Assembly: GCA_040771865.1 (NCBI GenBank) | Contig: JAXGZF010000010.1 | Span: 62,001-126,000, forward strand | Origin: Desulfobacterales bacterium | GTDB lineage: Bacteria > Desulfobacterota > Desulfobacteria > Desulfobacterales > UBA2245 | Direction: 5' to 3' | DNA length: 64,000 nt | Shown: positions 4,814 to 15,753 of the stretch, piece by piece | Position numbering within the stretch: the stretch's first letter is position 1 | Layout: each line of letters opens with the position of its first letter | The notes under the pieces: model-generated | What the model saw: only the letters and a program-made list of their open reading frames with translations | Database searches by the model: none | Told to the model about the DNA's origin: nothing | Program-made: the position numbers and the translations under genes

Positions 4814-5518
4814 TTAAATTTGACTGAGTCCCTGATCCTGAAGCAGCATCACCTTATCCGCGATCCGCCGCATCTGGTCCATGTAGTGGGATACCACCAG
4901 AAGCGTACATTTCGCCTTGAGACTGACCAGGAAGTCCTCGATAATTCCGGCGGCCTTTTTGTCCAGGGAGCTGGTAGGTTCGTCGCATAACAGCACCTCG
5001 GGCTCCAACACCAGCGCCCTGGCGATGCACAGCCGCTGCTTCTGGCCCCCGGACAGATCCAGCGCGCTTTTTTCCAGGCGGTCCTTCACTTCTTCCCACA
5101 GAAACGCCTGTGCCAGCGATTTTTGAATCTTTTCTTCGATTAAGGACTGATCCCGTAAACCGGCAAGCTTCAGAGGAAAAGCCATGTTTGAGGCAATGCT
5201 CATCGGCAGCGGGTTGGGTTCCTGAAAAATCATGGCGACCTTTCGGCGCAAAAGCGGCATGGGTATGTCTTTCTGGATCGGCGACACCCATTTGTCGCCA
5301 AGTCGAATTCGAATGGTTCCGGTACAGCGGGCGCCTGGAATCTCGTCCCACATACAATTGAACAGCCCCAGCAGCGTGGACTTTCCCTGTCCGGAAGGCC
5401 CGGTAATTGCCGTAATGGCGCCTTCAGCAAAACTTGCGTGAATATTGTTCAGCACCCGGTTTCGCCCATAATAGAAACTGATCCCCTTGACGATTATTTT
5501 ATCCTTTGCTTCCATCAA
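4814..5518 (-). CDS. pstB: Phosphate-type ABC transporter ATP-binding protein
   Basis: GPSGQGKS, FQEPNPLPMSI, LWEEVKDRL, LSGGQKQRLCIARAL, DEPTSSLD. Confidence 0.88.
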   Translation of the reverse strand: MMEAKDKIIVKGISFYYGRNRVLNNIHASFAEGAITAITGPSGQGKSTLLGLFNCMWDEIPGARCTGTIRIRLGDKWVSPIQKDIPMPLLRRKVAMIFQEPNPLPMSIASNMAFPLKLAGLRDQSLIEEKIQKSLAQAFLWEEVKDRLEKSALDLSGGQKQRLCIARALVLEPEVLLCDEPTSSLDKKAAGIIEDFLVSLKAKCTLLVVSHYMDQMRRIADKVMLLQDQGLSQI

Positions 5519-5545
5519 TTCCGTATCAACCTGCCCGACGGCTTC

Positions 5546-6430
5546 CTATGCCCTGTAAAGTGTCCAGTAAGACAGATGCTTTTTCATCCCGTATGCCAGC
5601 ATGAACAGAAAAGCGCAGACTCCCAGCAAAATCAGGGACGCACCATAACCGCCGGCCAGTTCCTCCGGGTTCGTATACTGATTGGATATGTAGTAAATAT
5701 AAAAGGGCAGCGCCTCGTATTGCGACAACAGGGAGGACGGCACGCCGGCCGTCGCCACCACGCCTGTCAACAGCATAACCGCTGTATCTTCGGCGCATCG
5801 GCCGACGGCCAGGATAATGCCGGAGCTGATGCCGGAAAGCGCGTTCGGTATCAATACATAGACAATGTTTTGGAGTTTATTCGCACCAAGAGCAAGGGCG
5901 GTTCTGCGGATGCCCGGCGACAGCTCCTCCAGAGATATCTGGGTGCTCCGGACAATGTAGGGCAGTACGAGTATGGCAAGCGACAGGGAACTGATCAGCA
6001 GACAAGGCCCGATGCGGTCATCAAAGTGGTTATGCAGGAAAACAGCGAGGCTGAAGCCGAACAGGCCGATTACAATGGAGGGAATGCCTGCCAGAATGTC
6101 GAACAACATCCCTGAAAGTTTTTTCATTCCGGGTCCTGCGTATTCTGCCAGATAGATGCCGGAACACACGCCCACCGGCACCGCGAGAGATGCGGACAAT
6201 ACAACCAGGCAAAGGGTCCCCACAATAGCCGGAAAGATGCCGTCGAAAACCCTGGCGCGGCCCAGTAAGGCTTGAAGCGGATCCGCCTGACCGAAAATCA
6301 GCTCTCTTCCGAGGCTCGGAAGACCCTGAATCAGCAGGTATCCCAGAAATAGAGACACAAACAGGCAAAGCAGGATTGTCATGATCCAGGAAAAAACCAC
6401 AACCGCCTTTTCAGCAAAACCCTGCATCAC
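5546..6430 (-). CDS. pstA: Phosphate-type ABC transporter permease PstA
   Basis: IYLAEYA, LAGIPSIVIGLFG, ALALGA, GRCAEDTA motifs. Confidence 0.88.
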   Translation of the reverse strand: MMQGFAEKAVVVFSWIMTILLCLFVSLFLGYLLIQGLPSLGRELIFGQADPLQALLGRARVFDGIFPAIVGTLCLVVLSASLAVPVGVCSGIYLAEYAGPGMKKLSGMLFDILAGIPSIVIGLFGFSLAVFLHNHFDDRIGPCLLISSLSLAILVLPYIVRSTQISLEELSPGIRRTALALGANKLQNIVYVLIPNALSGISSGIILAVGRCAEDTAVMLLTGVVATAGVPSSLLSQYEALPFYIYYISNQYTNPEELAGGYGASLILLGVCAFLFMLAYGMKKHLSYWTLYRA

Positions 6431-7284
6431 TGCACCACGCTCTTTTTATGACCGATGAATCTAACTGCAACGACGGCCGTGGTTGTAAACAGATACAGGG
6501 CGATGCCGCATGTAAAAATGGAACGGAACTCCAGACTGTTGAAGTCCGCGGCATTTACCAGCGCGATATGCGCGGTCAGCGTCCTGGCCGGTTCCAGAAA
6601 TCCGCGCGGCGCGCGTATCGCATTTCCGGCCAGCATCAGCGAAATGAGGGTATCCCCAAGGGCGCGGCCCAGGGCAAGGATAAATCCCGATATCATGCCG
6701 TTTAAAGCTTTTGGCATGATGATATACAGCAGACGCTGCGCACGGTCGGCGCCGAGGGCCTTGGCTGCCTGAACATCAACCGGATCCACGGCCAGCAAAC
6801 TGTCTGAAAAAAACAGGATCATGGTGGGGCTGATCAGTATGGCCAGTACAACAACTGCCGCCAGCACGCACATGCCTGCTCCGCCAAATCCCTCCCGTAT
6901 CAGCGGCACCAGCAGAAAGATGCCCACGAAACCGTAAATCACGGTGGGAATGCCGGTCATGAAACGAACCAGAGCGCCCAGTATCCTGCGCAATCCCGGC
7001 CCGCCCAGACTGGTGATCGCAAAAGACGTTCCCAGGGAAAGGGGAAGCGACAAAGCTGTGGCCGGAAGCGCAATCCACAGGGTGCCGGAAATCATGGGCC
7101 GTATGCCGTAAAGTCCCTGATAGGGGTCCCACGGACCGGCCCAGATGGAAAGGAACATACCTTCCTGAAACAGGGGAAGGCCCAGTGCGATCAAGAACAA
7201 CAATATCGACGAAATGGTGACCGCACTGGCCAGTGTGCAAAAAAGAAATATATTTTTTGCGGTGGTTTCCCTGGAAAATATCAT
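6427..7284 (-). CDS. pstC: Phosphate-type ABC transporter permease PstC
   Basis: YGIRPMISGTL, GIPTVIYGFVG, LALGRALGDT, TLTAHIA motifs. Confidence 0.88.
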   Translation of the reverse strand: MIFSRETTAKNIFLFCTLASAVTISSILLFLIALGLPLFQEGMFLSIWAGPWDPYQGLYGIRPMISGTLWIALPATALSLPLSLGTSFAITSLGGPGLRRILGALVRFMTGIPTVIYGFVGIFLLVPLIREGFGGAGMCVLAAVVVLAILISPTMILFFSDSLLAVDPVDVQAAKALGADRAQRLLYIIMPKALNGMISGFILALGRALGDTLISLMLAGNAIRAPRGFLEPARTLTAHIALVNAADFNSLEFRSIFTCGIALYLFTTTAVVAVRFIGHKKSVVQ

Positions 7285-8111
7285 TTTACCGAAATGAACC
7301 CGCTATCGACGACTATTTGTTGCCCTTCGGTCGTGAAGAGGTAGTCGATGAACAGCTTGGCCAACCCCGTGGGCTCGCCCTTGGTATTGCTGTATAATCC
7401 GCGGGACACCTTGTATTGACCATTTACGACGGTTTCGATGGTCGGCGTTACGCCGTCAAGGGCCACTGGGGCCACGGTTTCGTCCATGTGGCCTACGGAA
7501 ACATAGCCGATTGCGTATGGGTCGTTTGCAACGGCGGTTTTCATGGCGCCATTGGACGGCACGAAAAGCGCCTTTGCGGATATGTCGCCTTTATTCAGGG
7601 CTTTTTCCCAGAAAACTTCCCGGGTTCCACTGGATTCATCCCGAGTGTAAACGGTAATTTCATGATCCGCGCCGCCCAGAGCCTTCCAGTTGCTGATTTT
7701 TTCGGAATAAATATCTTTCAACTGGTCTTTGGTCAGAGATTTTACGGGATTTGCCGGATTGACCGTTACAGCTACTCCGTCAATAGCCCATTTGAACATT
7801 TTGAGGTTATACGGTTCGATTTCTTCCGGCTTGGGCGCACGGCCGGAGTTTCCGATGTCCACAAGCCCCTCGCCCACCTGTTTGATGCCGACGCCCGAGC
7901 CGCCGCCGCCCACGGTGATCACGATATCCTTGTAGCGCGTCATGATCCGTTTGGCCGCTTCCTTCATCACCGGGATGTGAGCCGTGCCGCCGGCGATCTT
8001 AAGGGTTCCCTTCTGTCCTTCGAAGGCATCCAGGGCGCCGCCGAAACAAGGCGAAGCCAGAAAGCAAAATGCGAAGAAAACAATAAGCATTTGAATCGGC
8101 TTTTTTGACAT
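7281..8111 (-). CDS. pstS: PstS-family periplasmic oxyanion-binding protein
   Basis: Signal peptide; GGGGSGVG, RDESSGT and AIGYVS motifs. The first motif is atypical (AGGTAH). Confidence 0.85.
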   Translation of the reverse strand: MSKKPIQMLIVFFAFCFLASPCFGGALDAFEGQKGTLKIAGGTAHIPVMKEAAKRIMTRYKDIVITVGGGGSGVGIKQVGEGLVDIGNSGRAPKPEEIEPYNLKMFKWAIDGVAVTVNPANPVKSLTKDQLKDIYSEKISNWKALGGADHEITVYTRDESSGTREVFWEKALNKGDISAKALFVPSNGAMKTAVANDPYAIGYVSVGHMDETVAPVALDGVTPTIETVVNGQYKVSRGLYSNTKGEPTGLAKLFIDYLFTTEGQQIVVDSGFISVK

Positions 8112-8153
8112 GGTCTTTTTCTCTCCCTTTCAATTCTCTGATTTTGATGAACA

Positions 8154-8924
8154 TTACAAGATATTGCCTGCCAGCAACGCCGCACCCAAGGCACCGATCA
8201 ACTGTGGATCATCCGGGCAAAGCACTTTGCGGCCGAGTTTTTCCGACAATAGCGTGCGCATGCACGGGTTTTTGGCCACGCCGCCGGTGAAAACGATATC
8301 GCCTTCCGATGAAACCCGGCTGATCATGCCGGCAACCCGGCGAACGACGCTGGCGTGCAGACCCCTGGCGATGTCCCGGCGGCTCTCTCCTCTGGCAATC
8401 AGCGAGGTGACCTCGGATTCGGCAAATACCGTGCACATGCTGGAAATATTCAGATCGTTTTCCGCCAGAAGCGCTTCCTTGCCAAAACTCTCGACGTCAT
8501 AACCCAGGGTTCTGGCCATAATTTCCAGAAACTTTCCGGTTCCGGCTGCGCAGCGGTCGTTCATCTCGAATTTTTTTACCCGGCCGTTTGCAAACATCGA
8601 AATGGCCTTGCTGTCCTGCCCCCCGATATCCAGGACCGTTCGAACATCCGGGAAAAAGACCCGCGCACCCCTGGCGTGGGCTTTGATTTCCGTGACCGTG
8701 GGGGCGTTAAAGGAGATCTCGAAAAGGTTCCGGCCGTATCCGGTGGCCATGATGCGGTGATAAGACACGCCGTTGATCAGCGTTGAGGCCTCAGCCATGG
8801 GATCGAAGCCGGTGTCCGTCTGAAGGCTGAGGGCGATTTGACCCGTGTCATTTACCAGCACCAGTTTAATGGTGCGCGAGCCGATATCGATTCCCGCAAA
8901 ATGCATGGTTCTTTTGGTTCCCAA
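8154..8924 (-). CDS. ATP-dependent [4Fe-4S] activator/reductase (BadF/HgdC family; DCCP reductase-like)
   Basis: GIDIGSRT, ATGYGR, LDIGGQDSK, MNDRCAAGTG, SMCTVFAESE, TGGVA. Alternative ATG at 8906. Confidence 0.92.
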   Translation of the reverse strand: MGTKRTMHFAGIDIGSRTIKLVLVNDTGQIALSLQTDTGFDPMAEASTLINGVSYHRIMATGYGRNLFEISFNAPTVTEIKAHARGARVFFPDVRTVLDIGGQDSKAISMFANGRVKKFEMNDRCAAGTGKFLEIMARTLGYDVESFGKEALLAENDLNISSMCTVFAESEVTSLIARGESRRDIARGLHASVVRRVAGMISRVSSEGDIVFTGGVAKNPCMRTLLSEKLGRKVLCPDDPQLIGALGAALLAGNIL

Positions 8925-8927
8925 AGC

Positions 8928-10205
8928 CTAACGAAGCTGTTCGATAAAGGCCTCGATCCTGGTTTTCAGCTGACCGACATCCTCCATGCTGTAATCGGTC
9001 TCGATGCGCAGCGTAGGAATGTTTTTTTCTTCGAGCGCCTTTTCGATCGGCATGGATTCCATGAGATAGGGCTGGCAGAACTGAAGACCATAGTGGATTA
9101 CCCCGTCGGCTCTGTATGTTTTAACCATTTCCTGAATATGGTCCAGACGGTCCGGGTTGGGCGTGAAAATGGCGCAATCCACCTTGAAATAACGATCCAC
9201 GATGGAGTCCATCATTTCATCAACTGTCTGCCCGGATTCGTCCGTGAGGTTCCGTGTGCCGCGTTCGCCCACGCAGGATTCCTCGCCCACGATCACTGCG
9301 CCGGAGGTCTCCACGATAAAGGGCAGCTTCCAGTTGGGAACCGCCTGGGGACAACCGGATACCAGTATGCGAGGGGTTTTCTCGGGGAAAGCGCCCCTTT
9401 TCTCTTCAACCCGCTTTTCCAGTTCGTCGCAGATCTTGTTTACGGATGCCGTAAACCGGGCCGGATTGTCGTAGAAGAACACCTGGTTGGCCAGAAGAGC
9501 GTCCAGACCGGATATGGGCGCCGGGTCCGCCTTGCGCAGGGACGACAGCCGATGAATGGCGGCGCGTTTGGCATTGACCGTTCGAATTGCCTGCTTCAGG
9601 GATTCCGCAGTGATCGAAACGCTGGTTAGCTCCTCGACGGATTTCTTGAACCGGTCGTATTCCGTTTTCAACAGCGCCCTGCCCTGCCCGGATTTTACCT
9701 GCGGCAGATCCATTACATAAAGATTTTTGACCATGCTGTTCAGGGATTCATAGGCTTTTTTCTTGCCGTCGCAGGTATTTTCACCGACCACCATGTCCGC
9801 GCTTTCGAGATATGGACAAACCTTGCCGAGCTTGAACCCGAAGGACGATTTAATCAAAGCGCAGGTATTGCGCGGCAGAAGCTTTTCCACCTCTTCCATG
9901 GCAAAATCCGCGCCGGAGCAAAGTCCGACAAGCGTCGCATTGGCCGCCAGAACGATTTCCTCGGGCACAAAAACGCAGTAGGACCCGATAATCCTGCGAC
10001 CGGCAGCCTTTTCGCCCATCAGCTCCTTGATCCGCAGCCCGTGGACCTCGCTCATGACAAAATCAAAATAACCCATCCCCTCGGGGCGGTTCTTTTGAGA
10101 CATGAAAATATCCTGGTACGCTTTTCCCAGAACTCCCAGAAGAACATCGTGTGCAGCCAGGTCAAGTCCCAAGTCGAGCCACATGTTTTTATAATCTTCG
10201 CTCAT
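8928..10205 (-). CDS. Double-cubane-cluster protein (DCCP) / 2-hydroxyacyl-CoA dehydratase D family reductase
   Basis: N-terminus W..LGLDL..HD…NRPEGMGYFD…HGLRI; Cys motifs YCVFVPEE, LPRNTC, VCPY, NTCDGKK, EESC, DCA, QFC. ATG at 10205 with AAGGAG RBS; adjacent to the activator gene. Confidence 0.88.
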   Translation of the reverse strand: MSEDYKNMWLDLGLDLAAHDVLLGVLGKAYQDIFMSQKNRPEGMGYFDFVMSEVHGLRIKELMGEKAAGRRIIGSYCVFVPEEIVLAANATLVGLCSGADFAMEEVEKLLPRNTCALIKSSFGFKLGKVCPYLESADMVVGENTCDGKKKAYESLNSMVKNLYVMDLPQVKSGQGRALLKTEYDRFKKSVEELTSVSITAESLKQAIRTVNAKRAAIHRLSSLRKADPAPISGLDALLANQVFFYDNPARFTASVNKICDELEKRVEEKRGAFPEKTPRILVSGCPQAVPNWKLPFIVETSGAVIVGEESCVGERGTRNLTDESGQTVDEMMDSIVDRYFKVDCAIFTPNPDRLDHIQEMVKTYRADGVIHYGLQFCQPYLMESMPIEKALEEKNIPTLRIETDYSMEDVGQLKTRIEAFIEQLR

Positions 10206-10268
10206 ACGCTTCTCCTTAAAATGATAATAAAATTTAAGTTTATATCTATATAATTTATTATAAAAATG

Positions 10269-10290
10269 TGTCAAATTTATAATATTTATA
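10269..10290 (-). promoter_or_regulatory. Putative promoter (-35 TTGACA with AT-rich upstream element) for the DCCP operon
   Basis: Minus strand TATTATAAATTTGACACAT; same motif family recurs at 10459, 17472, 32780 and 38124. Confidence 0.45.
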
Positions 10291-10458
10291 AATATATCTA
10301 TTATTTATTGATAAAAACAATTAATCCCGATGCCACAGATATTATAGAACGCAGAAACCAAATCGATTACGCTCAAAATAATGGGCAGTCAAATGCTGCA
10401 ACGGAAAAATCATCCATACTGCCGCTGTATTGATTTACTGGCTGATTAACAAAATTGC

Positions 10459-10501
10459 CATTATAATTATCTATTTGACAAATATATGTTTTATATAACA
10501 T
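10459..10501 (+). promoter_or_regulatory. Putative promoter for the fdh leader/operon
   Basis: CATTATAATTATCTATTTGACA followed by an AT-rich -10-like region (TAACAT). Confidence 0.5.
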
Positions 10502-10541
10502 AAAAAGGACGATTCAAATTTCACCTTCTGAAAGGTCTTCC

Positions 10542-10586
10542 ATGATTTATCAGAATTACGATTTCGGCTTTACCTGACGGCTTTAA
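10542..10586 (+). CDS. Putative selenocysteine-containing leader peptide MIYQNYDFGFT(U)RL
   Basis: GAAAGG RBS-like sequence before ATG 10542; TGA at 10575-10577 followed by CGG CTT TAA; SECIS-like stem-loop immediately downstream. Confidence 0.55.
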
Positions 10587-10620
10587 CAGGTCTGACCGGG
10601 TTGTCGGACACATAAGCCGT
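10577..10620 (+). promoter_or_regulatory. Bacterial SECIS-like stem-loop
   Basis: Lower stem ACGGCTT/AAGCCGT. Upper stem GTCTGAC/GTCGGAC (one G-U) starts after a 12-nt spacer from the UGA. Apical loop CGGGTT. Confidence 0.55.
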
Positions 10621-10988
10621 TTGCCGGAATCGAATCCAGTCTGCATTCACTTTTTTCATCTCGGGTTCGGTCCAGCACATTTAATTTCGCTCATTGCAGT
10701 ACAGCTCTTGACGGTTGCTTTTTCATGGTGCTCTGCCTGCTTGCAGGACAGGCGTAATGTCTCGTTGTTGCAAAGATAAGCATCGGCTTTTTTGAAAACA
10801 GCAATAGACTCAATGGATTGTGAGTTCAAGGAAGGGCTTTGAGCTTCGGGCGGAAAAGGGAGGAGGTGAGAAATTCTTAACCAAGCAAGACGTTTCGGAA
10901 GGCCGGAATTCCTTCAGGAAACCGGTCGGGAAACGCAAATCCGGAAATTCGTTATTCATTTAAACCCCAAAAACAGGAGATAGATTTC

Positions 10989-13900
10989 ATGAATGTAACA
11001 CGAAGGGAGTTTATCCAGATCACGGGCGCGACCGCCGCTGGTCTGGCCGTGAGCGGGATCGGATTCGGCCTCTCCCCGGTCAAATCTCACGCCCAGATGC
11101 TCAAGACCAAGTATGCCAAGCAGACCACGACCATCTGCTGTTACTGCGCCGTGGGCTGCGGCGCCATCGTGCACACAAACAAAGCGGATGGTCGGGCCAT
11201 CAATGTCGAGGGTGATCCGGATCATGTGATCAACCGCGGCGCACTCTGCGCCAAGGGCGCGTCTCTGTTTCAGCTGGCGGAGAACAGGAACCGTCTGACC
11301 GAACCCATGTACCGAGCGCCTTACTCGGATAGATGGCAGAAGGTTTCCTGGGAATGGGCGATCGAAAATATCGCCGATAGAGTCAAGAAAACGCGCGACG
11401 CCAATTTTACGACCCAAAACGACAAGGGGCAGACGGTCAACCGCACCACCGCCATCGCATCCGTCGGCAGCGCGGCTTTCGACAACGAGGAGTGCTTTAT
11501 CTATCAGTCATTGATGCGGGCACTGGGGCTTGTCTATATCGAGCATCAGGCCCGTATCTGCCACAGTTCTACCGTTCCGGCGCTGGCGGAATCGTTCGGA
11601 CGCGGTGCCATGACCAATCACTACATTGACCTGAGAAACAGCGATGTCCTGCTGGCAATGGGCGGCAATCCGGCGGAAAACCATCCCATTTCCTTCAAGT
11701 ACATCACTGAGGCCCAGCTCAAGGGCGCGACGCTGATCAGCGTGGACCCCCGCTTTACCAAAACATCGTCCAAGGCCGATATATACGCGCCGATGCGTTC
11801 CGGCACGGACATCGCCTTCCTCGGAGGCATGATCAAGTACATTCTGGACAACAAGCTCTACGATGTGGAATACGTGTCCAATTACACCAACGCTTGTTTT
11901 ATCGTCGGCAAAGGCTTTAGTTTCAAGGACGGTCTTTTCTCGGGTTATGACAAGGCCAAGCGGGCCTACGACAAAAAACAGTGGGCGTACGAGATGGACG
12001 CCAACGGGGTCCCCAAGATGGACCGGACCCTCAAGGACAAACGGTGCGTTCTGAGTCTGCTCAAGAAGCATTACGACCGCTACACCACCAAACTCGTTTC
12101 CAAGATCACCGGAACGCCCGAAGCCGATCTGGTCAAGGTTTACAAGGCTTACGGCGCCACGGGCGCCAAGGGCAAGGCCGGAACGAGCATGTACGCCATG
12201 GGCTGGACCCAGCATACCGTGGGCGTGCAGAACATCCGCACCATGGCCATGATTCAGCTTCTTCTGGGCAACATCGGTTGCGCCGGCGGCGGCGTGAACG
12301 CCATGCGCGGCGAGTCCAACGTTCAGGCGTCAACGGACTGGGCCTTGCTGTTCAATATCCTGCCCGGCTACCTGAAGATTCCGCGGGCATCCGATGATTC
12401 GCTGAATACTTATCTAACGAAGAACACGCCCAAGAGCAATGATCCTCAGAGCGCCAATTGGTGGCAGAACTATCCCAAGTACACGGTCAGCCTGCTCAAA
12501 TCCTTTTTCGGGGATAAGGCCCAGAAAGAGAACGGTTTCGGATTCAACTGGCTGCCCAAGTGCGATGACGGCAAGGATTACTCCTGGCTGAGCCTCTTTG
12601 ACGAAATGTACAAGGGCTCGTTCAAGGGATTTTTTGCCTGGGGCATGAACCCGGCATGCAGCGGGGCCAATTCCAACAAGACCCGCGCGGCTTTGGGAAA
12701 GCTCGACTGGATGGTTAATGTCAACCTGTTTGACAATGAGACCGGTTCTTTCTGGCGCGGTCCGGGGATGAATCCGGCCAGCATTAAGACCGAGGTGTTC
12801 ATGCTGCCCGCCTGCGTTTCCTATGAGAAGGAAGGCAGCATCACGAACAGCGGCCGGTGGATGCAGTGGCGCTACCAGGGGCCCGACCGCCTGGGCAACA
12901 GCAAACCCGACGGCGACATGATGATCGAACTGGGCCTCAAGCTCAAAGAGCTTTATGCGAGAGGCGGCGCATTTACAGAACCCATTCTCAATCTCAAGTG
13001 GGATTACATGACCCACCATGAGTTTGATCCTCACAAGGCGGCCAAGGAGATCAACGGATACTTCCTGAAAGACGTGACCATTAAGGATACGACGTACAAG
13101 GCCGGCACCCTGGTGCCGAGCTTTGCCATGCTGCAGGCCGACGGATCGACCTCTTCGGCCAACTGGCTGTATTGCGGCAGCTATACGGAAAAGGGCAACA
13201 TGGCCGCACGCCGGGGCCAGGAAGACGCCGAGAACAAGATCGGTCTCTATCCCAATTTTTCCTGGTGCTGGCCGGTCAACCGGCGCATCATCTACAACCG
13301 CGCATCCGTGGATCTCAAGGGCAATCCGAGAGATGAGAAGCGATGGGTCATCAAGTGGAACGGAGAAAAGTGGATCGGCGATGTGCCCGACGGTCCGTGG
13401 CCCCCGCTGCAGAATGCCGACGGCTCGCCCAATCCCGCCGGCCGGCATCCGTTCATCATGCAACAACACGGGCATGCGCATATCTTTGGCCCGGGCCTGG
13501 TTGACGGTCCGTTCCCCGAGCATTACGAACCGATCGAGTGCCCGGTGGAAAAGAACCTCCTCGGAAAGCAGCTTAACAGCCCGACCGCTCCGGTTTATAC
13601 GTCGGATAAGGATGCGGTCGTTTCCTGCGATCCGCGCTTCCCGTATGTCGGATCGACCTACCGGGTTGTCGAGCACTGGCAGACCGGTCTGATGACGCGG
13701 CCCCAGCCCTGGCTGCTGGAACTTCAGCCCCAGGTGTTCGTGGAGATGAGCGAAGAGCTTGCCAAACTCAAGGGCATCAAGAACGGAGAACGCGTCCGGG
13801 TGTCTTCCGCGCGCGGTTCGGTTGATTGTGTCGCCATGGTGACCAAGCGCTTCAAGCCCTTTAAAATCGCCGGGAATACGGTTCATGAGGTTGGCGTGCC

Positions 13901-14033
13901 CTGGCATTTTGGATGGCGATGGCCGGAAAGCGGCGCCGAGGAAAGCGCCAATATGCTGACTGTGTCCGCAGGCGATTCCAACACCCGAATTCCGGAAAGC
14001 AAGGCATTTATGTGCAATGTTTCGAAAATATAG
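10989..14033 (+). CDS. fdhA: Periplasmic Mo/W formate dehydrogenase alpha subunit, Cys-type
   Basis: Tat signal TRREFI; CCYCAVGC…LCAKG Fe-S motif; EHQARICHS with TGC at the position that is Sec in FdnG-type enzymes; AMGWTQH, RGESNVQ. Confidence 0.95.
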   Translation: MNVTRREFIQITGATAAGLAVSGIGFGLSPVKSHAQMLKTKYAKQTTTICCYCAVGCGAIVHTNKADGRAINVEGDPDHVINRGALCAKGASLFQLAENRNRLTEPMYRAPYSDRWQKVSWEWAIENIADRVKKTRDANFTTQNDKGQTVNRTTAIASVGSAAFDNEECFIYQSLMRALGLVYIEHQARICHSSTVPALAESFGRGAMTNHYIDLRNSDVLLAMGGNPAENHPISFKYITEAQLKGATLISVDPRFTKTSSKADIYAPMRSGTDIAFLGGMIKYILDNKLYDVEYVSNYTNACFIVGKGFSFKDGLFSGYDKAKRAYDKKQWAYEMDANGVPKMDRTLKDKRCVLSLLKKHYDRYTTKLVSKITGTPEADLVKVYKAYGATGAKGKAGTSMYAMGWTQHTVGVQNIRTMAMIQLLLGNIGCAGGGVNAMRGESNVQASTDWALLFNILPGYLKIPRASDDSLNTYLTKNTPKSNDPQSANWWQNYPKYTVSLLKSFFGDKAQKENGFGFNWLPKCDDGKDYSWLSLFDEMYKGSFKGFFAWGMNPACSGANSNKTRAALGKLDWMVNVNLFDNETGSFWRGPGMNPASIKTEVFMLPACVSYEKEGSITNSGRWMQWRYQGPDRLGNSKPDGDMMIELGLKLKELYARGGAFTEPILNLKWDYMTHHEFDPHKAAKEINGYFLKDVTIKDTTYKAGTLVPSFAMLQADGSTSSANWLYCGSYTEKGNMAARRGQEDAENKIGLYPNFSWCWPVNRRIIYNRASVDLKGNPRDEKRWVIKWNGEKWIGDVPDGPWPPLQNADGSPNPAGRHPFIMQQHGHAHIFGPGLVDGPFPEHYEPIECPVEKNLLGKQLNSPTAPVYTSDKDAVVSCDPRFPYVGSTYRVVEHWQTGLMTRPQPWLLELQPQVFVEMSEELAKLKGIKNGERVRVSSARGSVDCVAMVTKRFKPFKIAGNTVHEVGVPWHFGWRWPESGAEESANMLTVSAGDSNTRIPESKAFMCNVSKI

Positions 14034-14049: not shown

Positions 14050-14772
14050 ATGAGCAAAGCAATTTTTGTCGATACGACAACCTGCACAGCCTGTCGCGGT
14101 TGCCAGATAGCCTGCAAGCAGTGGCATGGCCTGCCTGCGGAACAAACCACCAATCGTGGAACTTTTGAAAATCCTGCGGATCTTTCTTTCAACACCTACA
14201 AGATCGTCCGGATGCGGGAAGAGGTGATCGACGGCAAGCTGAACTGGCTGTTCTTTCCGGAGCAGTGCCGTCACTGCCTCGAACCGCCCTGCGGAGGCAT
14301 TGCCCAGGATGAGAGTTCCATTTTCCGGGATGAGCGGACCGGCGCCGTGATTTTTACGGCGAACAGCAAGAGTCTCAACGCTCAGGAAATCACCGAAGCC
14401 TGCCCGTACAATATTCCCCGGGCCGGCGAGGATGGGACGCTGGCCAAGTGCGACCTGTGCAACGACCGGGTCGAGAACGGACTGCTTCCGGCCTGCGTGC
14501 AGACGTGCCCCACAGGCGCCATGAGTTTCGGCGACCGGGAAGAGATGCTGGACAAGGCCAAGAAACGCCTGGAAGTGGTGAAGCAGAAATATCCCAAGGC
14601 CATGCTGCTGGATCCTGACGATGTCAGCGTGATTTATCTGGTGGCCTTTGAACCGAAGTACTACCATGAGTTTGCGGTGGCTTCGCGTTCGACGGGATAC
14701 GACATGACGCGGAAGATGGCTCTGCGGAAGATGTTCCGTCCGCTGGCAAACATCATGTCTTCATTGACATAA
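14050..14772 (+). CDS. fdhB: Formate dehydrogenase iron-sulfur (beta) subunit
   Basis: CTACRGCQIAC, CRHCLEPPC, CDLC…PACVQTCP. Confidence 0.92.
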   Translation: MSKAIFVDTTTCTACRGCQIACKQWHGLPAEQTTNRGTFENPADLSFNTYKIVRMREEVIDGKLNWLFFPEQCRHCLEPPCGGIAQDESSIFRDERTGAVIFTANSKSLNAQEITEACPYNIPRAGEDGTLAKCDLCNDRVENGLLPACVQTCPTGAMSFGDREEMLDKAKKRLEVVKQKYPKAMLLDPDDVSVIYLVAFEPKYYHEFAVASRSTGYDMTRKMALRKMFRPLANIMSSLT

Positions 14773-14804: not shown

Positions 14805-14833
14805 CGAGAGGGGAGAGTTGATCTCCCCTCTCG
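14805..14833 (+). other. Intergenic stem-loop between fdhB and fdhE (mRNA stabiliser or partial terminator)
   Basis: CGAGAGGGGAGA-gttga-TCTCCCCTCTCG, perfect 12-bp stem with no U-tract. Confidence 0.55.
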
Positions 14834-14868
14834 CGCTACATGACTATGACAAACGATCAGGAGAAGGA

Positions 14869-15753
14869 ATGACCCAGCAGACAGAGACCACCCCGGCCCA
14901 GGTCGGAAAAGCGGCAGAATCCATTATGAGCATAAGACCTTTTTACGGGGAGCTGATCGGGTTTTACCAGGCCGTATTTATGGCACAGGAAGAGGCGAAG
15001 CAGACCGTTCGAATCGAGGCAAAACCGATTTCCGAGGACATGCTGAAGCTCAAGCTCAAGGAGAAGTTTCCCCTGGTTTCCGTAAGCGAGTTTGAGCTGG
15101 ATGAAGTCTCCTGCAGGCAGCTTTTTGATAAAATCAGCCGCATCATTTGCGAGAAAAATCCGGGTCTGAAGTCCTCCGCCGAGGTTTTGATCGCCGCTGT
15201 GGACAAGGGCGATCTCAGGGTTGAGGATCTCTGCCGGGCCCTGCTGGCCGGAAATGATTCCGTTTTTGAAAAGTACGCCGAGGAATTGAAGGTTGACAAG
15301 AAGCTGCTGGCATTTATTGTCTACAACAGCGTCAAGCCTTCGCTGAACGTTTTTGCCGAAAAGACGGCACAGCAACTGGCGCCGGATTATTACTGGGGCA
15401 AGGGGTATTGCCCGGTATGCGGAAACACTCCGGCCATTGCGGTTCTGCAGGGCGAGGGAGAGCGGTTTTTGCACTGCGGCTTCTGCGGTTATCACTGGTC
15501 CGCGATGCGTATATACTGTCCGTTCTGCGAAAACAAGGACGCCAAGACCCTGAGCTATTTTTACAGCGAGTCGGAACCGGAGTACCGGGTGGATATCTGC
15601 GAAGCCTGCAACAAGTACATCAAGACGGTGGATCTTCGAAAGCTCAGCCGGGAGTGCTACATACCCCTGGAGCAGGTCGCGACCCTTCACCTGGATCTGA
15701 AGGCCCGTGAAATGGGCATTGAAAGTGGAACCAGCCTGTATCTGGAACCCTGA
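14869..15753 (+). CDS. fdhE: Formate dehydrogenase accessory protein FdhE
   Basis: CPVCG, CGFC, CPFC, CEAC..YIK, HLDL motifs; ATG 14869 after AGGAGAAGG. Confidence 0.9.
   Translation: MTQQTETTPAQVGKAAESIMSIRPFYGELIGFYQAVFMAQEEAKQTVRIEAKPISEDMLKLKLKEKFPLVSVSEFELDEVSCRQLFDKISRIICEKNPGLKSSAEVLIAAVDKGDLRVEDLCRALLAGNDSVFEKYAEELKVDKKLLAFIVYNSVKPSLNVFAEKTAQQLAPDYYWGKGYCPVCGNTPAIAVLQGEGERFLHCGFCGYHWSAMRIYCPFCENKDAKTLSYFYSESEPEYRVDICEACNKYIKTVDLRKLSRECYIPLEQVATLHLDLKAREMGIESGTSLYLEP

Follow-up and report, generated by a model that had tools for sequence, protein, structure and literature searches.

Why should a formate dehydrogenase gene with cysteine (Cys) at the selenocysteine (Sec) position lie behind a short reading frame that ends in UGA and runs into a hairpin resembling a selenocysteine insertion sequence (SECIS)? 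The question arises from a 64,000-nucleotide stretch of Desulfobacterales bacterium contig JAXGZF010000010.1 (the window, whose positions are used below), where the gene fdhA follows a long 5' region. The original prediction, made from the letters of the window, took this region for a leader in which decoding of the UGA, as opposed to stalling or termination there, would report the supply of Sec-tRNA and SelB and switch on the selenium-free enzyme. From the comparison with relatives described below, we consider that the element is probably a conserved cis-regulatory leader of the Desulfobacterota, serving to report the cell's capacity for decoding UGA as selenocysteine.

The leader and its family

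The frame was found exactly as first described, from the GAAAGG and the ATG (10542-44) to the CGG CTT TAA that follows the UGA. It reads ATG ATT TAT CAG AAT TAC GAT TTC GGC TTT ACC TGA, and the positions of all parts of the leader are collected in Table 1. RNA folding of 10530-10640 produced a three-tier hairpin from 10559 to 10632, made of the helices P1, P2 and P3, with a minimum free energy (MFE) of -38.3 kcal/mol. Shuffled sequences gave -25.6 +/- 3.6 kcal/mol (z of -3.52), none of 200 being equally stable, and the remaining 5' sequence as far as fdhA showed no unusual structure (fold z of -0.8). The hairpin expected after the UGA is thus present in the fold, and it covaries in relatives. 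In the window P3, the stem begins 12 nucleotides (nt) and the loop CGGGUU (10597-10602) 19 nt after the UGA. Two details of the early description had to be revised. The bases GAUUUCGGC and GCCGGAAUC, believed to form an alternative pairing, constitute the outer helix P1 of the same hairpin, which is the best-conserved helix of the family. The pairing of ACCUG with CAGGU across the UGA holds in the window only; the family-wide complement of ACCUG is the loop sequence CGGGU.

Upstream, the -35-like hexamer lies in a conserved box, ATCTATTTGACA, which most of the other 17 leaders described below also have, about 60-70 nt 5' of their ATG. A purine-rich AGG/GAGG box occupies the place equivalent to the GAAAGG in the family alignment. 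The TTGACA at 10475-10480 was not among the sites listed by a consensus promoter scan of the window. The element was single-copy in the 2.98-Mb genome, as judged by BLAST and by the covariance model. No family of Rfam 15 matched the window leader or those at the loci L142, L150 and L157, and the sole real Rfam match in the leader loci tested was the tRNA-Sec of L157. A strong Shine-Dalgarno-like run, GGGAGGAGGTGA, was visible in mid-leader at 10858-10869, followed by only a 4-codon GTG frame.

Among the best 80 FdhA loci of the GTDB collection, the active site was encoded by TGA in 72 and by a Cys codon in two. A homologous leader preceded the Cys-type fdhA of locus L048, in a Desulfobacterales metagenome-assembled genome where a Sec gene lies just downstream on the same contig. 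This leader had the same promoter box, the frame ATG ATT TTC GAT TTT GGC TTT ACC TGA, and a hairpin whose upper-stem sequence differed from that of the window with pairing retained. A BLAST search with the whole 691-nt leader against 40 relatives returned a single weak match only. Another 17 leaders were obtained by a BLAST search with 10455-10660 over 401 genomes of the order, followed by scanning of 110 loci for the motif. These and the window leader were aligned with MAFFT (alignment A1, 18 sequences), and a covariance model was built on this basis; its 45 matches, consisting of the 18 seeds and 27 sequences not used for building the model, formed alignment A2. The model matched 28 of 151 genomes and 22 of 77 genera in a sample of the class (the window genome included), all in one order and several genomes with two copies. 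In a phylum-wide sample, five of 151 genomes matched, and three of these belong to other orders. A pattern scan of metagenomes in which the TGA was not fixed yielded, among the 80 matches listed, one leader by the model, located before a Sec-type selD; the other 79 were chance matches according to the same model.

The pairing was well conserved. In A1, 85.6% of the cells were paired, versus 26-47% when the 3' partners were slid, and 10 pairs had changed on both sides, versus 4.5 +/- 1.3 in shuffles (0 of 500 as high), these figures spanning four helices that include the weak P2 and the invariant ACCUG:CGGGU. In A2, 89.5% of the cells were paired versus 74.2% in shuffles, with a covariation score of 0.451 versus 0.194 (0 of 500), counts which lean towards structure because A2 was fitted to the model. 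P1 was 96-97% paired and had changed on both sides in four (A1) and six (A2) of its 10 pairs, P3 in five and six of its seven pairs. Besides the GUCUGAC/GUCGGAC of the window, the P3 stem was found as CUAAC/GUUAG, CUACC/GGUAG, CUGCC/GGCAG and GCCACC/GGUGGC. A chance origin is excluded, since the element is conserved with covariation in other genomes; short frame, UGA and covarying hairpin are kept in the relatives, the Cys-type fdhA leader among them, such conservation having been set as a test of the prediction.

The loop of P3 was nearly invariant, CGGGUU(U/C) with CGUGUU in a few copies, and had a G at the second position. It started 17-22 nt after the UGA in 44 of the 45 copies, those in which the loop motif was found. 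The bSECISearch rule places the apical loop about 16-37 nt after the UGA. A further bacterial SECIS criterion, quoted in PMC13582414, is a G as the first or second base of the loop. P3 has both the distance and the G, and the hairpin immediately follows an in-frame UGA of translated RNA, which ends a frame under codon-level selection. P3 thus agrees with the usual bacterial criteria; as judged from these properties it is SECIS-like, and it may bind SelB. Among the true SECIS elements of this clade, that of fdhA had an 8-bp apical stem with a loop GGC (74 loci, 56 distinct) or GGG located 23 nt after the UGA, and that of selD a loop GGG(G)A at about 20 nt (5 loci). The ACCUG at the end of the frame could pair with CGGGU of the loop in 98.9% of the cells of A1 and never covaried. 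This pseudoknot, invariant in the family, is a candidate pairing. In the main class of leaders the MFE favoured a hairpin ACCGGGUUUGU/ACGAAGCCGUGU over P3, and that hairpin was without covariation support.

The frame itself is under selection. An in-frame ATG...TGA was present in 42 of the 45 aligned copies (24 of 27 among the non-seeds), and TGA stood at the aligned place in 44, TAA or TAG never. All copies had eight codons apart from the window (11 codons, +9 nt) and L178 (nine codons, +3 nt), and both length variants preserve the frame. The consensus of the peptide was M-x-x-[D/F]-[F/L/I]-G-F-T-UGA. Among 36 distinct sequences, the glycine codon was GGC in 28, GGT in five, GGA in two and GGG in one, the phenylalanine codon TTT in 32 and TTC in four, and the threonine codon ACC in 29, ACT in four, ACA in one and ACG in one, with one serine (TCC). 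The variation in G-F-T being synonymous and at third positions, selection has acted on the peptide and not on the RNA alone. Beyond the UGA, the 2-26 codons up to the next stop were unconserved, what conservation appeared there merely following the RNA motif, which is an argument against a functional selenopeptide.

The genes behind the leader

The genes located downstream of the leaders were identified by NCBIfam scans of open reading frames and by tRNA scans (Table 1). The leader was always at the head of operons, whose gene content differed. The set comprised selD, yedE/yedF, selB with tRNA-Sec-like genes, putative uptake systems and stop-free paralogs, and only a selenium signal explains it. 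According to these annotations, the regulon is made of genes for selenium acquisition and activation, of a Sec-decoding backup and of Cys twins of selenoenzymes, all of which would be wanted under selenium shortage. The reading of the leader as a sensor of selenium or Sec supply was strengthened by this set. The leader-linked HmcF-like genes were stop-free, and a 62-68% identical paralog with one in-frame TGA existed in the four genomes tested (4 of 4).

A tRNA-Sec-like gene came first behind the leader at six loci and was followed by selB at four of them. The tRNAs of L064 and L157 displayed A1:U72, the discriminator U73 and the anticodon UCA; the canonical tRNA-Sec of the genome has G73. One genome (G023) possessed two selB and two tRNA-Sec genes, and its leader-linked pair was the lower-scoring one. 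In the passages of Mukai et al. 2017 (PMC5389517) dealing with Desulfobacterales and Syntrophobacterales, a selC* tRNACys with selB* (and cysS*) reads the opal codon as Cys. The leader-linked tRNAs, with their A1:U72, U73 and UCA and a second selB behind them, match this selC*-selB* system by sequence, and a Cys-at-UGA backup thus appears to be placed under the selenium leader. At L184 (G555:C7, minus strand), in a genome of another order, a tRNA-Sec-like sequence with a GCA anticodon loop as seen by eye was located about 300 nt after the leader MCLFFGFT-UGA; ARAGORN made no call for it.

The window fdhA belongs to the Cys twins. The closest solved relative of its product is the FdhAB of Desulfovibrio vulgaris, and the motif EHQARICHS aligned with EHQARI-Sec-HS of that enzyme, the Cys codon being TGC. 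The Cys expected at the Sec position is therefore there. The genome encodes tRNA-Sec, selA, selB and selD, the last with an in-frame TGA of its own; a lack of this machinery had been named as an argument against the prediction. It also encodes a 90%-identical FdhA with one in-frame TGA, whose leader of about 170 nt is unrelated, the similarity to the Cys gene ending at the ATG. The sister species carries Sec fdhA genes only. Because of this paralog and of the sister species, the window fdhA is, on sequence grounds, a young Cys twin of a selenoenzyme in a selenocysteine-using organism. A second, more distant FdhA pair in the genome consisted of one TGA-containing and one stop-free gene. The stop-free member is the neighbour of its TGA-containing partner, and the model detects no leader in front of it (FdhA pair coordinates G000:C4:357901-360945, C4:333564-336593 and C4:328255-331260). 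The operon divergent from the window leader (4814-10274, minus strand) encodes a double-cubane reductase, an activase and a PstS/PstC/PstA/PstB-like ABC transporter, kinds of gene that stand behind leaders in other genomes.

Table 1. Parts of the window leader, the genes next to it, and the genes found behind leaders of the family (L, locus; G, genome).
Feature	Position or locus	Strand	Remark
-35-like hexamer TTGACA within ATCTATTTGACA	10475..10480	+	no clear -10
Shine-Dalgarno-like GAAAGG	10530..10535	+	6 nt 5' of ATG
Leader frame MIYQNYDFGFT + UGA	10542..10577	+	11 codons; extra 9 nt in frame relative to the 8-codon family norm
P1 5' strand	10559..10568	+	within the reading frame; 10 bp
UGA, presumed sensing codon	10575..10577	+	aligned TGA in 44/45 family copies
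P2 5' strand	10576..10583	+	8 bp; begins in the UGA (includes its GA)
Read-through tail CGG CTT TAA	10578..10586	+	TAA 10584-86; tail unconserved in family
P3 SECIS-like hairpin GUCUGAC-CGGGUU-GUCGGAC	10590..10609	+	RNA fold; strands 10590-96/10603-09, 7 bp
P2 3' strand AAGCCGUU	10614..10621	+	sequence conserved in family; 5' strand not
P1 3' strand	10623..10632	+	RNA fold and family covariation
C-rich, G-poor tract, candidate Rho loading site	10633..10712	+	
Remainder of long leader	10713..10988	+	alignable by eye with the G098/AnMBR Cys-fdhA leader
fdhA, Cys-type periplasmic formate dehydrogenase alpha subunit (FdnG/FdhA-type)	10989..14033	+	
fdhB (4Fe-4S subunit)	14050..14772	+	
fdhE-like accessory gene	14818..15753	+	
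Cys-type fdhA behind leader	window, G098		2 loci
selD behind leader	G065, G147, G354, G201, L170, L211		L211 is a metagenome contig
yedE and yedF behind leader	G147, G294, G116, G065, L158, L159, L163		
PstS-like ABC transporters behind leader	G197, G392, G373, L158		
ModA-like binding protein behind leader	G048		
ExtI-like porins behind leader	L164, L183		
Double-cubane reductases, activase and Sao-type ABC genes	G285, G380, G294, L162, L166, L168, L174, L184		
MauE/DoxX-like membrane protein and rhodanese/TsoB-like protein			six loci
OS_HP2 family (seleno)proteins behind leader	L172, L179		
HmcF/TmcB/DsrK-like iron-sulfur proteins behind leader			nine loci
tRNA-Sec-like gene behind leader	L064 5731-5822		
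tRNA-Sec-like gene behind leader	L157 1686-1777		
tRNA-Sec-like gene behind leader	L160 1692-1783		
tRNA-Sec-like gene behind leader	L181 1233-1324	-	
tRNA-Sec-like gene behind leader	L158 1439-1525		
tRNA-Sec-like gene behind leader	L183 1691-1779		

A model of the sensor and its rivals

We propose the following course of events, in which we infer that SelB binds, that the ribosome stalls, in which direction the genes respond and that Rho takes part. Transcription would start roughly 30 nt before the short frame, in the window near 10505-10515. P1, the 5' strand of which sits inside the frame, would clamp P3. The ribosome translating the leader would reach the UGA, and its fate there would report the supply of SelB-bound Sec-tRNA. 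With ample selenium, SelB carrying Sec-tRNA would dock on P3 and the UGA would be decoded; the ribosome would then run 2-26 codons further, terminate and depart. The hairpin would re-form, the C-rich and G-poor RNA behind it would stay bare, and the downstream genes would be off, most likely through premature termination of transcription by Rho. In the absence of Sec-tRNA, the ribosome would linger at the UGA, where the FGFT nascent chain may hinder release factor 2 (RF2). The stalled ribosome would hold P1 and P2 open, their freed 3' strands could re-pair with downstream RNA, and transcription or translation would continue. In this genome, low Sec-tRNA would switch on the Cys-type FdhA, in other genomes the genes for selenium uptake and activation and selC*-selB*.

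A bolder version is possible, and we hold it only tentatively. The leader would be a homeostat of UGA-decoding capacity, in which an RF2-resistant FGFT arrest, relieved only by a tRNA delivered by SelB, governs a conditional change of the genetic code. The stall would turn on scavenging of selenium together with the Cys twins of the selenoenzymes and selC*-selB* (with cysS*), and the resulting Cys-tRNA would decode the leader's own UGA, closing the loop.

Concerning the output, a tRNA gene lies directly behind the leader at six loci; as the gene regulated first may thus encode a tRNA, control is expected to be transcriptional, at least there. The pyrimidine-rich stretch noticed earlier in the window is real: the 80 nt 3' of P1 contain 28% C and 17% G. 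Over the family, C exceeded G in this segment in 43 of 45 leaders (means of 27.5% C and 15.8% G, with 18.1% and 17.0% in the upstream control). A consensus scan found no intrinsic terminator in the window, and the combination of an intrinsic terminator with a competing antiterminator helix, known from trp-type attenuators, was not found. The short translated frame with a regulatory codon, also typical of trp-type attenuators, is there. The tna operon is under Rho-dependent control, and the tRNA genes as targets, the lack of a conserved terminator and the C-rich tract together point to an attenuation of this kind. Termination by Rho is a guess, since base composition by itself is no proof that Rho acts. 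In addition, many main-class leaders have a CUCCCGG box about 125-135 nt after the UGA, and a downstream CCCGG was present in 24 of 45 leaders. The CUCCCGG box is complementary to the loop of P3 and, in the manner of an anti-Shine-Dalgarno sequence, to the Shine-Dalgarno sequences of the next gene, so that translational control may be added there. The leaders of the window and of G098 are both without this box and have a much longer spacer.

Could the hairpin act without any decoding? P3 might be a SelB operator, its occupancy by SelB-GTP-Sec-tRNA alone setting expression, with the short frame only keeping the RNA open or positioning ribosomes. The loop is indeed nearly invariant, its position and composition are SECIS-like, a protein bound to it could face competition from the downstream CCCGG box, and the copy at L168 retains the hairpins with neither ATG nor UGA. 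An operator nevertheless needs no UGA aligned in 44 of 45 copies, no fixed distance to P3, no fixed length of eight codons, no indels that keep the frame and no synonymous-only variation in G-F-T. An operator of the selAB type acts without UGA decoding, and here a conserved in-frame UGA precedes the hairpin. We therefore regard this explanation as unlikely.

The same conserved frame suggests a second explanation, in which FGFT-UGA is an arrest peptide of the TnaC type, or the RNA a riboswitch, for a small molecule such as a selenium compound, the UGA serving merely as a stop read by RF2. A conserved nascent peptide, (F/L/I)-G-F-T, does end at the UGA stop, a C-rich tract follows as in tna, and no terminator is conserved. 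Such a sensor leaves two observations unexplained, the covarying hairpin with its G-rich loop at SECIS distance from the UGA and the membership of selB and selC* in the regulon. Eight residues are moreover short for a peptide sensing in the exit tunnel. Its probability seems to us low, comparable to that of the operator. Far less probable is a real mini-selenoprotein gene, encoding a Sec-containing peptide of about 11-35 residues with a function of its own, which would fit an in-frame UGA with a SECIS-like hairpin and is opposed by the 2-26 unconserved residues after the Sec and by the constant place of the element in front of operons of differing content. The preference for a regulatory role over a protein product, expressed from the window alone, is upheld by the unconserved tail throughout the family.

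The preferred reading, a leader reporting the capacity to decode UGA as Sec, has several observations against it. The first concern the RNA. P2, strong in the window, was only 63% paired across the 18 A1 leaders and was rejected as a family feature, and the A2 pair counts are biased as stated above. The leader loop CGGGUU is not identical to the real SECIS loops of the clade, and its invariance could serve the RNA-RNA pairing with ACCUG instead of SelB. A loose script detected terminator-like sites in just 14 of the 45 leaders, the main class having none. Folding of eight leaders with the ribosome-covered stretch held open revealed no common switch. The window lacks the CUCCCGG box and has 411 nt between the UGA and fdhA. 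The second concern individual copies. L168 keeps the hairpins without ATG and without TGA, and L181 has ATT in place of ATG; the third exception to the frame, L174, is a truncated local match. The L168 copy (1501-1632, G134:C6) is GC-rich and stands before a double-cubane gene, with P1 and P3 kept, ACG for ATG and GGG for TGA. Its genome still has selB and tRNA-Sec, and the copy would be either decaying or a translation-independent variant. The third concern distribution and expression. The sister species, the only other one of the genus examined, lacks both this gene and the leader. By the covariance model, selD, selB and the divergent double-cubane/ABC operon have no copy of the leader in the window genome. 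The Cys-type fdhA of L064 had no leader in 1.5 kb upstream. Finally, in RNA-library contigs X3, X5 and X6 and in one X1 contig the match to the window began at 10988, and the preceding letters were those of the 5' untranslated region of the Sec paralog. For this reason these contigs were assigned to the Sec paralog of a relative; by sequence, the metatranscriptome contigs touching the region belong to that paralog and not to the leader. One 444-nt X1 contig, probably DNA, covered 10459-10856 with 36 differences. None of the findings named in the original prediction as speaking against it, and testable in silico, was obtained.

Relation to known systems

Thanbichler and Bock reportedly described, in 2002, a SECIS-like element in the 5' untranslated region of E. 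coli selAB that represses the translation of this one operon. As in selAB, a SECIS-type hairpin before selenium-pathway genes would couple expression to SelB and Sec-tRNA. The E. coli element is said to have no UGA to decode and no conserved leader peptide and to serve one operon, whereas the leader described here has a translated frame ending in UGA and heads many operons, including tRNA genes. The resemblance to tnaC (PMC8450073, PMC8429421) lies in the short frame, the conserved C-terminal part, the UGA stop and the C-rich tract, and in that a ribosome held at the UGA would decide downstream expression. TnaC responds to free tryptophan within the exit tunnel and lacks a SECIS, whereas relief of the stall would here come from UGA decoding.

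With the trp, his and leu attenuators, as treated in part of PMC3892789, the leader shares the principle that the supply of one charged tRNA is read by a ribosome on codons of the leader frame, the RNA of which takes part in helices. It differs from them in using a single recoded stop that needs SelB and a hairpin, not runs of sense codons. The same source describes in Treponema primitia an fdhFSec gene in which UGA/SECIS decoding couples selenium to transcription elongation, in an organism with a Sec/Cys pair of formate dehydrogenases. In that case the enzyme gene itself contains the UGA, and its transcript is cut short when selenium is lacking. The leader described here is a dedicated element in front of the Cys isoenzyme, and the sign of its action would be reversed. 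An attenuator responding to the incorporation of a rare amino acid is presented in that part of PMC3892789 as engineered and not reported in nature. The earlier statement that no Sec-codon attenuator had been described agrees with our search: no description of such a leader was found in full-text literature, subscription journals being outside its scope, or in Rfam 15. The words leader, SECIS-like, riboswitch and attenuat- are absent from a 2026 review of the prokaryotic selenoproteome (PMC13188914), and the main-text passages of PMC5389517 on selC* mention no upstream regulatory element. Leader-peptide sensing is itself known; what would be new is a recoded stop codon as the sensing codon.

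If the proposed reading is true, the recoding event itself would be the sensor, a selenocysteine counterpart of the amino-acid attenuators. To our knowledge, little has been learned about the ways in which bacteria sense their selenium status, and few organisms have been documented to switch between Sec and Cys isoenzymes. The selC*-selB* Cys-at-UGA system has no known signal, and the leader would supply it. It would also make a selenium regulon definable by sequence alone, and provide a compact, portable switch answering to selenium or SelB. The regulon points to candidate genes for selenium uptake and handling, namely the PstS-like and Sao-type ABC systems, the ExtI-like porin and the MauE/rhodanese pairs, as well as the double-cubane reductases and an unknown 160-residue protein.

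At one locus with a MauE-like gene (L146, G365), the leader and this gene are separated by an apparent N-terminal double-cubane fragment (MSEDYRSMW...) that is cut by a stop and lies about 230-330 nt past the UGA. This suggests reshuffling of the genes behind the leader. The protein of about 160 residues has an N-terminus like IRFIYRxPxFxKQL and no NCBIfam match. It was the first gene behind several leaders (L165 780-1253 on the minus strand, L167 1875-2348, L171 1830-2321, L173 1777-2256, L177 1786-2322 and L186 1740-2249), and an HmcF/DsrK-like gene usually followed it.

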